DNA from: a virus
Taxonomy: Duplodnaviria > Heunggongvirae > Uroviricota > Caudoviricetes
Reading direction: 5' to 3' (one strand)
Length of the DNA stretch: 4,785 bases
IMG/VR virus record: IMGVR_UViG_2706794693_000003
Shown here: positions 1 to 4,785 of the stretch, in pieces
How positions within the stretch are numbered: the stretch's first letter is position 1
Layout: every line of letters begins with the position of its first letter
Position numbers and translations under genes: made by a program
The notes under the pieces: model-generated
What the model was told of the DNA's origin: nothing
Databases searched by the model: none
Seen by the model: only the letters and a program-made list of their open reading frames with translations

Positions 1-11
1 GTCCAATGTGC

Positions 12-48
12 ATAAAAAAATCCGGAAACAAGTGAGCGTTTCCGGATT
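12..48 (-). terminator. Predicted rho-independent terminator downstream of the portal gene
   Basis: Perfect 11-bp inverted repeat (plus 19-29 AATCCGGAAAC and 38-48 GTTTCCGGATT) with an 8-nt loop. On the minus-strand transcript the stem is followed directly by a U-run (plus-strand A-run 14-20). It lies about 35 nt 3' of the portal stop codon (81-83). Stem has 5 GC pairs of 11, so moderate stability. Confidence 0.6.
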
Positions 49-80
49 CTTACACAGCCACTGGATCGGTCAACTGATCC

Positions 81-1237
81 TTAACTGATCGGCATTACAC
101 CACCGGGACGCGGATTCATATCTTCCAGGTCGCGGCAGTCATTGGAAGAGTAAATTCCCCAGTTGATCCCGGTGGCGTAGGCTTCAAAACGGGACTTCAT
201 ATCCCCGCGCAGTAACGCCCCGGCGTTAAATTTGGCGTAATAAACGCCCTGCTTACTTTTTCGTACCAGTCCGGTGTTGATCCGCTGTTCGATGCGGGTC
301 AGATACGGCACCAGTGAATAGTTGATAAATCCCAGCCCCAGCTCTTCGATATTGTTGAAGGTGGCGCGATCGGTGTTCTGCACCATGTGCAACGGCACCC
401 GGAACAGACGACAGATTTCTTCCAGCTGAAACTTGCGGGTTTCCAGGAACTGACTGTCCTCGGCGTTCAGCGCCATCGACTTCCAGTCCAGCCCCATTTC
501 CAGAATCATCGGGCGGTGAGCATTGCCAAGCCCCGTGTGACACTCCTCAAAATCTTTCTTCAGACGCTCGTAAGCATCCGGCGTGAGCTTTTGTTCCGTA
601 CGCAACACACCGGATGTCACCGCACCATTACTAAACAACCTGGCACCGTGCTCCTCGGTTGCCGCTGCCAGTGAAATGGCCTCACGCGCATACGCAATGG
701 GATTCAGCCCGACAAGTCCATCCAGCGTCAGGGTGCGCACATGCCAGATTTCATTCTGGGTCAACACATCCACGGAACCATCCGGAAACGTCACCTGATA
801 AACCGGCTGCCACTGGCTGTTCAGCTTCGGTTCCACACAGCCCGGATCTATCGGAAGAAGCTCCACCACTTCTCCCAGTGCCTTTACCTTGTAGGCGTAA
901 AAATTCCCCCGTAGACACAGGCAGACAATAACCAGCTCCCAGAATTCCTGCGGTGTCATGTAGCCATTAGGTTTTGCCGAAACCAACTTATGCAGTCGTT
1001 CATCCACCGCCCGTGTTTTCAGGGTACCGCTGATTTTGTAGAGACTGCAGGGCAGCATACCAACAGACTCTGCCAGCACCCTGACGCAAGAATAGACCGC
1101 CGTCAGGCGCATGGCCCGCTGGCTACTGATCCGCTTTCCGGTATAGGTGTCGTATGACAGCCCGATAGCATCAGCAGTTCTGCTGGCGTGGTCACCGGCA
1201 CATCGCTTTTTCGTTGAAATAATCCCGAAAAGAACAC
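81..1237 (-). CDS. Phage portal protein, HK97 family; N-terminal region apparently frameshifted (possible pseudogene or sequencing error)
   Basis: Long minus-strand frame ending at TAA 81-83. Translation from about residue 58 of the track ORF onward (GLSYDTYTGKRISSQRAMRLTAVYSCVRVLAESVG...) looks like an HK97-type portal, and it sits directly after the large terminase. The track ORF 81..1328 starts at a TTG and its first ~28 codons overlap the small membrane gene out of frame, giving an implausible peptide. A GTG at 1235-1237, 6 nt after GGAGG (1244-1248), opens a different frame reading [24 protein letters not shown]..., which fits typical portal N-termini, but that frame stops at 1103-1105. 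Details are in the findings. Confidence 0.8.
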
Positions 1238-1419
1238 TATTTACCTCCGCCGACAGACTGCCGTGTACGGTCGAGATATCGCGCCACCAGCCACGACCAG
1301 AACAGGCACAGCGCCCCGGCAACAACAAAACCCGCCGGGGGATAAATCAGCCAGGCACCATACGCCAGCAAAAGCGCACCCAGCACGCCCACCAGAGGCG
1401 CGAGAATCAGCATGATCAT
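1237..1419 (-). CDS. Small hypothetical membrane protein (60 aa, two predicted transmembrane helices), between large terminase and portal
   Basis: ATG at 1417-1419 preceded by GAGGT with 5-nt spacing, starting 11 nt after the terminase stop. Product [60 protein letters not shown] has two hydrophobic stretches and a charged C-tail. Codons are E. coli-typical (many CTG, GCG, GTG). Its TAG stop (1237-1239) overlaps the candidate portal GTG start by 1 nt. From memory, a 60-aa gene (ymfR) sits in the same position in the K-12 e14 prophage; sequence identity was not verified. Confidence 0.65.
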
Positions 1420-1430
1420 AATTACCTCAG

Positions 1431-3164
1431 TTAAAGCGAGCGGATCCCGTAGGACTCAATGTGGTCAGACAGCGTGTCTTCTTTCTCGTACAGCATGGCT
1501 CTGCCAACCGCCATAATCAGCGCAACTGCACCATCGATTTTGTTTTCCGCCTGCTCTTTGACGGGTTTCACCACATCATCGTTACCCGGCATGTTTTTGC
1601 CGACCACGTTGCCGATACACCAGGTCATGATGGGATTGCCGTCATGATGAAAACGTCCCGATTCAATCGCTGCTTCCAGCTCTTTCATCGGATCGGACAT
1701 ATTGGTGAAGTTCTGGACGATAGTGACGGGATTCAGGTCTTCATCAGCAAGGTCATGTGACAACCCGGTCGCCCCGAAGGGGTCGATGGGTGACTCACTG
1801 ACCGGGCTGATTTTGTTCGCCGCTTTGGCCTCCTCGAGGATGTAGCGATAATCCACCTCCGCACCATCGGTAACGGTCAGAACGCCCATTTCCACCCATT
1901 TCTGAAAGCGTTCGGCTGTCCGTCGATCTTCATTTTTCTCGACGCTGTACACCGTGTCATACGGTACCCAGAAACGCGGGGCCACACTGTAGTAATGCGT
2001 TTTACCGTCAATCTCGCGGGTATAAAGTCGCGCCATGCTGTTCATATCCAGCTTACGCGCCAGGTCAAAGGCCAGAATGCACGGCTGCCCCTCGAACTGC
2101 TCAAGGGTCAGTGATTTATCCTCGCAGCTCTGCCAGCTCACCAAGTTGAAATACGCCGAACGCGCCGACACCCAGATATTGAGGTGTTTTGTTTTAAAGA
2201 CGTTTGCCAGACGGGCGTTATTTTTCGCACGCTGCTGCTGACTTAACAAAAATTCGCGATAAACCGACACGCCAATATTTGGATTGGCTTTTTCCAGCAC
2301 CTGCGGGCCGGTCCAGTCGTCACCTTCATCAACGGTATAGATGATCCCGAACAGTTCATCGTTAGGCACCGAGCCGTTGAGCATCTCGATGACTTCCCGC
2401 CGCTTGTCGTAGCACGGCCCCTCAATGTTGTACCCGGCGGTGGTGATGGCCCACATCAGTGGCTGACGTCGCGCCCCCATCCCGGTAAGCATTGTGGTAT
2501 AAAGCGCATCGGTGGCATGCTCGTGATATTCATCAACCACGGCACAGTGGGGTGATGAACCATCACCTGGGTTGCCGATCAGCGGTTCAAACCGCGCGCC
2601 ATCCTCCGGACGGTTCATGTTTGAGGCGTTAACCTCAATCCCGAACGCTTCCGTCAGCATGGGTGTGCGTTTACACATCAGTCGCGCCGGGCGAAAGACT
2701 TCCCACGCCTGTTTCTCTGTCGTGGCACCGGAATACACTTCCGCGCCAAACTCGTTATCACAGGCAAAACAATACAGGGCAACACCGGCAGAGATTGCTG
2801 ATTTGCCGTTCTTACGGGGGATTTCGGTGTACACCTCCCGGAAGCGGCGCAACCGGGTGCCTTTATTGACCCAGCCAAACGCACAGCAGATCACAAATAG
2901 CTGCCACGGCTCCAGCGTGATGGGCATCCGTTTGAATGCCCACTCCCCCTTGGTGTGCGGCAACAGCTGAATAAATTTCGCGGCCCGTTCAGCCAGGTCC
3001 TTGTCGAAGCGGTAACGAAACGACTTACTTTTTTCCGCCATCAGGTCATCAAGATGGCGCTGGCAGGCCTGAATCACAAACTGGCAGGCAACAATCTTTC
3101 CGCGCACGACATCCCGGGCATACTGATTTGCAGCATTTACGTTGGGGTAAGATTTCCGGCTCAT
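1431..3164 (-). CDS. Phage terminase large subunit (Terminase_1 / HK97-like), 577 aa
   Basis: Uninterrupted 577-codon ORF. Walker A-like motif [10 protein letters not shown], Walker B-like CAVVDEYHE, and a C-terminal nuclease-like region with conserved acidic residues ([19 protein letters not shown]...). The ATG at 3162-3164 overlaps the upstream terS stop (ATGA), indicating translational coupling. Confidence 0.93.
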
Positions 3165-3513
3165 GATTCGATAATTTTCAGAAACGGGTTAGTGGCTTTC
3201 TTCTGCCCCGCCAGGCCAATCAGACGCTGGCGGCTGCTGGGGTCGAGTCCGAGCATTGCCCCCGTGCTGCTCATCTCGGACTCCTGTTCTTTTTTGGCGG
3301 TCAGCTCCGGATTTTTGACCCTGCCGCCCATTGCACCGGTGATGGTGTTGCCCTGTATGGCAATATTTTTCACGGCACGTCGCCAGAACTCATAGGCCAC
3401 GCACCACCGCTCAAGTACCGCCAGGTCAGTCACGCACAGCAGGCCCTGACCGCAGAGTTCTTTGGTTGTCAGTTGCCACATGATCGTGGCGAGAGGGAGA
3501 TCTTCTTCAGCGA
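3161..3513 (-). CDS. Phage terminase small subunit, P27 family; visible C-terminal 116 aa only, N-terminus lies in the N-run
   Basis: Readable translation ...[116 protein letters not shown] resembles P27-family small terminases (recalled from memory). TGA stop at 3161-3163 overlaps the terL ATG. The true start is masked; estimated total length about 150-180 aa (inference). Confidence 0.75.
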
Positions 3514-3765
3514 NNNNNNNNNNNNNNNNNNNNNNNNNNNNNNNNNNNNNNNNNNNNNNNNNNNNNNNNNNNNNNNNNNNNNNNNNNNNNNNNNNNNNNN
3601 NNNNNNNNNNNNNNNNNNNNNNNNNNNNNNNNNNNNNNNNNNNNNNNNNNNNNNNNNNNNNNNNNNNNNNNNNNNNNNNNNNNNNNNNNNNNNNNNNNNN
3701 NNNNNNNNNNNNNNNNNNNNNNNNNNNNNNNNNNNNNNNNNNNNNNNNNNNNNNNNNNNNNNNNN
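3514..3765. other. Run of 252 N (masked sequence or assembly gap)
   Basis: Direct observation: positions 3514-3765 are all n. The 280-aa track ORF 3161..4003 reads through it as X residues and is therefore an artefactual fusion of two genes. Confidence 0.99.
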
Positions 3766-3766
3766 T

Positions 3767-4003
3767 TTTCGCCTCGCTCACCACACCGACACGCAGACAC
3801 AACTGACACAGACCTTTATCGCGCTTCAGAATACGGGCACGAATCACCGTCCATTTTGAGCCATAGCCACGCTGGTGGCGGCTCAGTCCGCGCTGGTGCT
3901 GCACCCAGCCTTCACCGCGATGTTTATCGCAGTAACCCGAACTGTCTGTGGTTGTACCTGCACATCCACGCTTACGGCAGGCACGTGGGATTAGTGATGG
4001 CAT
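3767..4003 (-). CDS. HNH endonuclease, packaging-associated (HK97 gp74-like); visible N-terminal 79 aa only, C-terminus lies in the N-run
   Basis: ATG at 4001-4003 preceded by GAGGT about 6 nt upstream. Translation MPSLIPRACRKRGCAGTTTDSSGYCDKHRGEGWVQHQRGLSRHQRGYGSKWTVIRARILKRDKGLCQLCLRVGVVSEAK... has the Cys-rich zinc-binding N-terminus and basic region typical of phage HNH endonucleases found just upstream of cos and terS. The catalytic HNH motif would fall in the masked part. Confidence 0.8.
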
Positions 4004-4045
4004 AAATACCTCATACCCTGCGAAATGTTTACCACGATAAAAAGG

Positions 4046-4510
4046 CTACTTAATGCACTGAGTGCGGATATACTCCTGTGCCCCTTCCAGTTGCATCTGC
4101 ATCGTCATCAGCCGCTCTCTGAGGGTGAAATAATCCCGTTCAGCGGTGTCTGCCAGTCGGGGGCTGGTTGCATTATCCACGCCGGAGGCGGTGGTGGCTT
4201 CACGCACTGACTGACAGACTGCTTTGATGTGCAACCGACGACGACCAGCGGCAACATCAGCGCGCAGAGTTTCATTTTCAGCTTTCGCATCAGCTAACTC
4301 CTTCGTGTATTTAGCATCGAGTGCATTAACATCACGCTGTCTCTGCTGCATGTCAGTAATGGTTGCGTTCGCCAGCTTCAGTTCTCTTGCGTTTTTGTCG
4401 CGCTGCTCTTTGTAGGTAATGGCGTTATCACGGTAATGATTAACAGCCCATGACAGGCAGACGATGATGCAGATAACCAGAGCGGAGATAATCGCGGTGA
4501 CTCTGCTCAT
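4046..4510 (-). CDS. Rz: Rz i-spanin (inner-membrane spanin), about 154 aa
   Basis: Translation [154 protein letters not shown] is near-identical in pattern to lambda Rz as I recall it (N-terminal TM helix, coiled-coil periplasmic domain). I place the start at ATG 4508-4510, which overlaps the endolysin TGA stop (ATGA), rather than the GTG at 4520-4522 used by the ORF track. Confidence 0.9.
4108..4290 (-). CDS. Rz1: Rz1 o-spanin (outer-membrane lipoprotein), 60 aa, fully embedded in Rz in another frame
   Basis: ATG 4288-4290 preceded by AGGAG (4298-4302) with 7-nt spacing. Product [60 protein letters not shown] has a signal peptide with lipobox VVGC (Cys20) and a penta-proline stretch, as in lambda Rz1. 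Tandem TGA TGA stops. Confidence 0.88.
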
Positions 4511-4785
4511 TGCTGCCCCCACAAACAGACTTCACGCTCAATCTCACGACGGGTCATCAGCCCTTTCCATTGCTTACCGCCAGCATATGTCCAGCGACAT
4601 AGCTGGTCACATGCGCCTTTGATATAGCCCTGGTTTATTTTGCGAAGAAGCGTCGATGTTCTGAAATTGCCAGCGCCCACGTTGTAAACGAACGAGTAAA
4701 GAGCGCCGCGCGTTGTTTCCGGTATATCGACTTTGATGTACGGGTTAATTTGTCTGGCGACAGTGGCAAGGTCTTTATTCAGGAG
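4507..4785 (-). CDS. Phage endolysin (T4-lysozyme-like GH24 lysozyme, R21/RrrD-like); C-terminal 92 codons only, 5' end beyond the window
   Basis: Minus-strand translation of 4510-4785: [92 protein letters not shown]. This matches my recollection of the C-terminus of lambdoid R-type lysozymes of E. coli prophages. The frame is open to the window edge. The position directly upstream of Rz/Rz1 is the canonical lysis-cassette order. Confidence 0.85.

Follow-up and report, generated by a model that had tools for sequence, protein, structure and literature searches.

An HK97-family portal gene of a Shigella sonnei prophage, split by a one-base deletion and cut short at an IS4 end

The minus strand of the 4,785-nt stretch of viral DNA analyzed here (the window) carries an HK97-family portal gene whose coding sequence is split over two reading frames. 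This gene is almost certainly a doubly disabled pseudogene, with two independent lesions, in a defective phiP27/ST64B/e14-like prophage of Shigella sonnei. The ancestral gene would have started at GTG 1237-1235, translationally coupled to an upstream ymfR-like gene, and would have encoded a 413-aa protein of the HK97 family. The first lesion, the loss of one G at Leu21-Ala22, would bring about termination after 44 codons. The second, a break after codon 380 at the end of an IS4 element, would have replaced the last 33 codons, along with the genes for the prohead protease and the capsid, by core chromosome. Neither lesion falls within the conserved portal core (residues 39 to 379). Judging from the sequence, we infer that no functional portal is made and that the locus is evolving neutrally.

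The portal gene is preceded by a ymfR-like gene (1237..1419, minus strand), an ORF for a small membrane protein of 60 aa that occupies the position of the annotated ymfR or “membrane protein” genes of Escherichia coli, phiP27, and ST64B; its product showed no Pfam or NCBIfam match. The first G of the portal GTG is the last base of the ymfR-like TAG (1239-1237). A Shine-Dalgarno-like GGAGG (1244..1248, minus strand), read from the sequence 6 nt 5′ of the GTG, is invariant across all homologues in the DNA alignments. Portal codons 1 to 21 are found in the ancestral start frame (1175..1237, minus strand), whose ORF translation ends, as a 44-aa product, at a premature TGA (1103..1105, minus strand); ribosomes initiating at the GTG would terminate there. 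Codons 22 to 380, comprising the entire conserved portal domain, are found in a second frame (98..1174, minus strand). In tblastn comparisons, the phiP27 and ST64B portals match the window over residues 1 to 21 in frame −3 (positions 1237-1175, 90 to 95% identity), and the long match, in frame −2, reaches residue 380 (window position 99) with 93.6% identity to phiP27. From residue 22 onward, frame −2 is the true coding frame, and the split between the frames is far beyond chance. The long portal frame extends from TTG 1328-1326 to TAA 83-81 without further stops or indels; the first start codon that follows its tandem TTGs is ATG 1112-1110.

The first-pass annotation, which was made from the letters of the window, had placed the GGAGG, its 6-nt spacing, the GTG, the 44-aa peptide with its stop, and the in-frame TTG and ATG starts at these same minus-strand coordinates. 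It had also taken the GTG for the ancestral portal start, which agrees with both the homologue annotations and the tblastn matches to residues 1 to 21, and had proposed an alignment check for a frame switch near 1160-1175; such a switch is indeed present, at 1175/1174, between residues 21 and 22. The loss caused by a start at ATG 1112 had been overestimated at about 70 residues and amounts to 42 N-terminal residues.

The site of the deletion is defined by DNA alignments with phiP27, ST64B, E. coli A36, E. coli C311, and the e14 prophage of E. coli K-12, in which the window shows a single one-base gap. One G of CTG-GCN (Leu21-Ala22) is lost between positions 1175 and 1174 of the minus strand, which puts the downstream portal frame at −1 relative to the start frame. 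The homologues read GAG CTG GCG/GCA GAK GCT ATC GGG CTG, translated as E L A D/E A I G L, and the window reads GAA CTG -CT GAT GCT ATC GGG CTG. The third base of Ala22, which is G or A in the homologues and T in the window, varies as a synonymous site of the downstream frame, so the deletion is fixed to the GG. Insertion of a G after position 1175 yields ...PAELADAIGLSYDTYTGK..., that is, AELADAIGLSY, the same peptide as in ST64B and e14 BeeE at this place. The annotated portals of all five homologues are read through this region in a single frame, as (E/D)AIGLSYDTYTGK, and start at the equivalent GTG, with the ST64B start annotated one codon earlier. On the 5′ side of the gap, most differences between the window and the homologues are silent in the GTG frame (AGC GAT GTG versus AGT GAC GCG; GAA versus GAG), with one Ala-to-Val change. 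This pattern confirms that the GTG frame was the coding one. Thus, the window has a one-base gap, an indel that is not a multiple of three, in a gene that its homologues encode in one frame.

The five one-gap alignments bear out the earlier proposal that a 1-nt deletion splits the portal N-terminus, but they revise its details. The repair had been placed in the GGG at 1161-1163 and the lesion attributed to a homopolymer run; the lesion is in the GG at CTG|GCN, about 13 nt upstream, which is a dinucleotide and not a homopolymer. Accordingly, the junction peptide is not AELLMLSGLSY, as had been suggested, since the correct repair gives AEL-ADAIGLSY. An extra G in GGG 1163-1161 opens the frame, too, but we rejected this candidate because it produces LMLSG where every homologue has A(D/E)AIG.

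The repaired 385-aa portal scores 263.6 bits against the TIGR01537 (portal_HK97) model (cut-off, 112; residues 39 to 379) and 359.2 bits against PF04860 (cut-off, 39.1; residues 47 to 373) and, with scores over both curated cut-offs, belongs to the HK97 family. The length of about 385 aa had been correctly calculated in the first pass; this product, however, is also truncated at the C terminus, as intact homologues consist of 413 aa (413 to 414 aa in the phage relatives). Phages phiP27 (NP_543090.1), ST64B (Sb4), SfII, SfIV, and SfI share the order TerL, 60-aa membrane protein, portal, as well as the same GTG start overlapping the upstream stop, and display 88 to 94% DNA identity to the window portal, with 93.6% protein identity over residues 22 to 380. 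Their portals are intact, encoded in a single frame of 413 to 414 aa, and followed by the prohead protease and capsid genes. In contrast, with its 1-nt deletion at codon 21/22 and the IS4 end at codon 380, the copy in the window does not form a single full-length frame of approximately 413 aa. Nor is the head module syntenic throughout. The order TerL-ymfR-portal is the normal one in phiP27, ST64B, SfII/SfIV, and E. coli K-12 e14, and TerL and ymfR are found upstream of the portal here as well, but the downstream side consists of IS4 and then raiA-pheL-pheA.

Homology to the intact portals ends at residue 380 of 413 (tblastn, window positions 99/98), and the joint with IS4 lies at 98/97. Window positions 1 to 97 (minus strand) are the terminal 97 bp of IS4, recognized by identity to annotated IS4 and beginning with TAATGCCGATCAGTTAAGG at position 97; the truncated portal frame takes its final five codons (VMPIS) and its TAA 83-81 from IS4. 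In 2,591 E. coli genomes, a query consisting of window positions 1 to 105 matched, at 98 to 100% identity, copies annotated as “IS4-like element IS4 family transposase”. The complete IS4 is 1,426 bp long (L007:7068-8493; L numbers denote the fetched loci), has the imperfect terminal inverted repeats TAATGCCGATCAGTTAAG and CTTAACTGACTGGCATTA, and encodes a 442-aa product with the Nterm_IS4 and DDE_Tnp_1 domains. It therefore qualifies as IS4 by its terminal sequence, its length, and its transposase.

Directly beyond IS4 is raiA-pheL-pheA, core chromosome common to all 5,426 E. coli genomes, so that the right flank of the element is raiA upstream DNA. A simple IS4 insertion is flanked by a direct target-site duplication of 11 to 13 bp. 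No such duplication was found around this element, and its flanks, CCCGGTGGTG and CAGCCCTTGA (GGTGGTG and CAGCCCT), are unrelated; IS4 therefore marks a deletion or rearrangement joint rather than a simple insertion. Next to the portal, this locus lacks the genes for the prohead protease and the capsid, which lie 3′ of the portal in every intact relative. These missing head genes might have been relocated by an IS4-mediated inversion instead of being deleted. Together, the deletion and the IS4 truncation at residue 380 substantiate the earlier view of the portal as an inactivated gene copy in a decaying prophage, a view that had left out the second lesion.

Apart from the break in the portal, the joint has cost this site its head and tail genes, through IS-mediated deletion or inversion. 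The element itself varies: an IS3-family element (HTH_Tnp_1 and rve products, on the opposite strand) sits roughly 1.1 kb into IS4 and interrupts its transposase gene in most S. sonnei assemblies, as seen in L004-L006, L010, L015-L020, and L022. An intact 442-aa IS4 transposase is encoded in L007, L008, and L021 (three loci from two assemblies). The nested IS insertion thus differs between S. sonnei strains.

It is very unlikely that the portal gene carries no lesion at its 5′ end and simply starts elsewhere, either at TTG 1328/1325, the call in the Ss046 record, or at ATG 1112. The long frame is open from TTG 1328; public annotations have used the TTG in one assembly (L010, 414 aa) and ATG 1112 in most others (343 aa), and the product of the latter retains the whole Pfam portal domain. 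However, about 90 nt of the TTG extension lie within the ymfR-like gene, and the first 50 or so residues of this extension are without a counterpart in any homologue, whereas ATG 1112 has no convincing Shine-Dalgarno sequence in front of it. Against both starts, the peptide of the GTG frame corresponds to portal residues 1 to 21 at 90 to 95% identity, and the mostly synonymous character of the differences 5′ of the deletion holds in that frame. No intact relative was found whose portal begins at the counterpart of the ATG or TTG and is missing the GTG-frame peptide.

A residual protein initiated at ATG 1112 would keep the complete portal domain, and nothing suggests that it has a function. That this internally initiated 343-aa portal is expressed and has been kept for a role beneficial to the host is extremely improbable; an example of such a role might be interference with the head assembly of incoming HK97-like phages. 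The support for its retention is the open frame, and the young age of the S. sonnei clone explains the small extent of decay equally well. The lack of additional stops and indels, together with the intact TerL, means that the decay of the pseudogene is recent or that the clone is too young for more damage to have accumulated.

The distribution of the deletion allele bears on whether it is a mutation or an artifact. The same 61-nt sequence across the deletion is present in 20 of the 20 fetched loci, which come from 18 distinct assemblies and include CP000038.1. The latter is the genome of S. sonnei Ss046, which is listed in PMC5447701 and credited there to Yang et al. 2005. The portal/IS4 junction is likewise common to all fetched loci that reach far enough, and window positions 1 to 3513 are 100% identical to the fetched S. 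sonnei loci (blastn). Exact-sequence look-up in the assembly collection found the TerL in 4,305 index blocks and the 343-aa portal fragment that starts at the ATG in 1,695.

On the E. coli side, a 251-nt junction query matched 1,391 E. coli records, with no more than 95.2% identity among the matches listed, and the deletion allele was not found with this query in 5,426 complete E. coli genomes. Among the approximately 100 E. coli matches listed (the best ones plus a spread), every full-length row spans 252 nt; one listed row spans 251 nt while covering 250 nt of the query. An exact 36-nt pattern over the frameshift had no match in genome_contigs, a collection that evidently does not include S. 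sonnei as a separate species representative.

The deletion is a fixed mutation of the S. sonnei prophage, found in every sampled assembly that carries the locus. The first-pass annotation had allowed for either a real mutation or a homopolymer error; the former stands, and the presence of the identical deletion in 18 independent assemblies refutes a sequencing error. Single-base indels are the most frequent assembly error, and this lesion is a one-base loss in a GG. Nevertheless, there is practically no chance that the genome truly reads CTGGCT, with an intact portal N-terminus, given that the identical stretch occurs in Ss046 and in later complete and draft genomes alike, that the truncated 343-aa call recurs throughout the index blocks counted above, and that a GG is not a homopolymer of the kind that causes systematic errors.

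Vanishingly little probability also attaches to programmed −1 ribosomal frameshifting or transcriptional slippage that would join the two frames into a full-length protein: although a −1 shift anywhere within 1237-1105 restores the frame, the exact native sequence would result if that shift fell on the CTG codon, and an A5 run (CGA AAA AGC, 1211-1207) lies inside the overlap, there is no X_XXY_YYZ slippery heptamer in any frame of the 135-nt overlap (1237-1103), the only homopolymers there (T4 and this A5) occur just as well in homologues that have a single frame and require no shift, none of the phage and E. coli prophage homologues examined has a two-frame layout, and the product would still be without its C terminus, with the adjoining head genes missing. 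Programmed frameshifting, already judged unlikely in the first pass, is therefore rejected, as both the heptamer and a conserved two-frame architecture are lacking.

The remainder of the window contains other phage genes on the same strand. The large terminase TerL (1431..3164, minus strand) is an intact ORF of 577 aa, with the Pfam TerL_ATPase and TerL_nuclease domains detected in an identical product. A nested Rz/Rz1 lysis (spanin) pair is recognizable from its ORFs (4522-4046, with 4290-4108 within it, minus strand); the 60-aa lipoprotein-like Rz1 ORF is embedded out of frame in a 158-aa Rz-like gene. Between these genes, the N terminus of an HNH endonuclease and the C terminus of a small terminase are joined into an artificial 280-aa ORF (3161-4003) by a run of 252 N (3514-3765). 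The counterpart of the N run in S. sonnei assemblies is 376 nt long (L010:3276-3651) and comprises the 3′ end of the HNH gene and the start of TerS, along with a GC-rich inverted repeat that is followed by a T-run, GGGGCGGGG...CCCGCCCC TTTTTTT. The difference between 252 N and 376 nt means that the mask is not length-preserving or that the source strain differs by 124 bp.

No exact match to the whole window was found among the fetched loci, owing to 2 SNPs in the lysis region and the length of the N run (blastn); over portal, ymfR, and TerL, the loci agree with the window at 100% identity. The lysis region (window positions 3766 to 4785) is 99.8% identical to most S. sonnei loci. Its comparison with L008:2253-3275 gives 93.7% identity with 8 gaps, while the terminase-portal part is still 100% identical, which suggests that one strain has had its lysis cassette replaced as a module. 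In addition, L009 has a C5-to-C4 change inside ymfR (L009:5828), where no ymfR gene is called, and the TerL calls are split or shortened in L019, L023, and L024. These extra lesions could represent either further decay or homopolymer assembly errors.

Compared with E. coli prophages, the portal gene is a mosaic: its 3′ 300 nt (98-400) are 99.7% identical to many E. coli genomes, and the best E. coli match of its 5′ 250 nt (1050-1300) is 95.2% identical. In the best prophage matches from E. coli, 4,686 bp of the window correspond to a span of about 5,620 bp. This longer span implies that there are relatives with approximately 0.9 kb extra between the lysis cassette and the portal, of which about 0.12 kb is accounted for by the discrepancy in the length of the N run.

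The nearest described analogue of the S. sonnei pseudogene is beeE (b1151) of the cryptic prophage e14 of E. coli K-12, likewise a decayed portal gene in a defective prophage. It has the same ymfR-portal junction and an identical N-terminal peptide, in a single frame. The two copies differ in their lesions. In e14, BeeE has kept the N-terminal frame and has an internal deletion after about 135 residues, resulting in a 157-aa product that overlaps the jayE pseudogene; the Shigella copy has the frameshift at 21/22 and the IS4 joint at 380 instead.

For annotation purposes, the locus should be treated as one portal pseudogene, frameshifted and incomplete, whereas public assemblies differ in calling an ORF of 414 aa from the TTG or one of 343 aa from the ATG. 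As the deletion is fixed in every sampled assembly with the locus, it could serve as a lineage marker. Yang et al. 2005 reportedly described how IS elements drive the formation of pseudogenes and the decay of prophages in Shigella genomes. The present case is alike in combining a frameshift with an IS boundary, here within one phage gene, and has nothing distinctive in comparison. This is ordinary prophage decay, and its biological weight is small: the portal locus adds one more instance of IS- and indel-driven prophage decay in Shigella.
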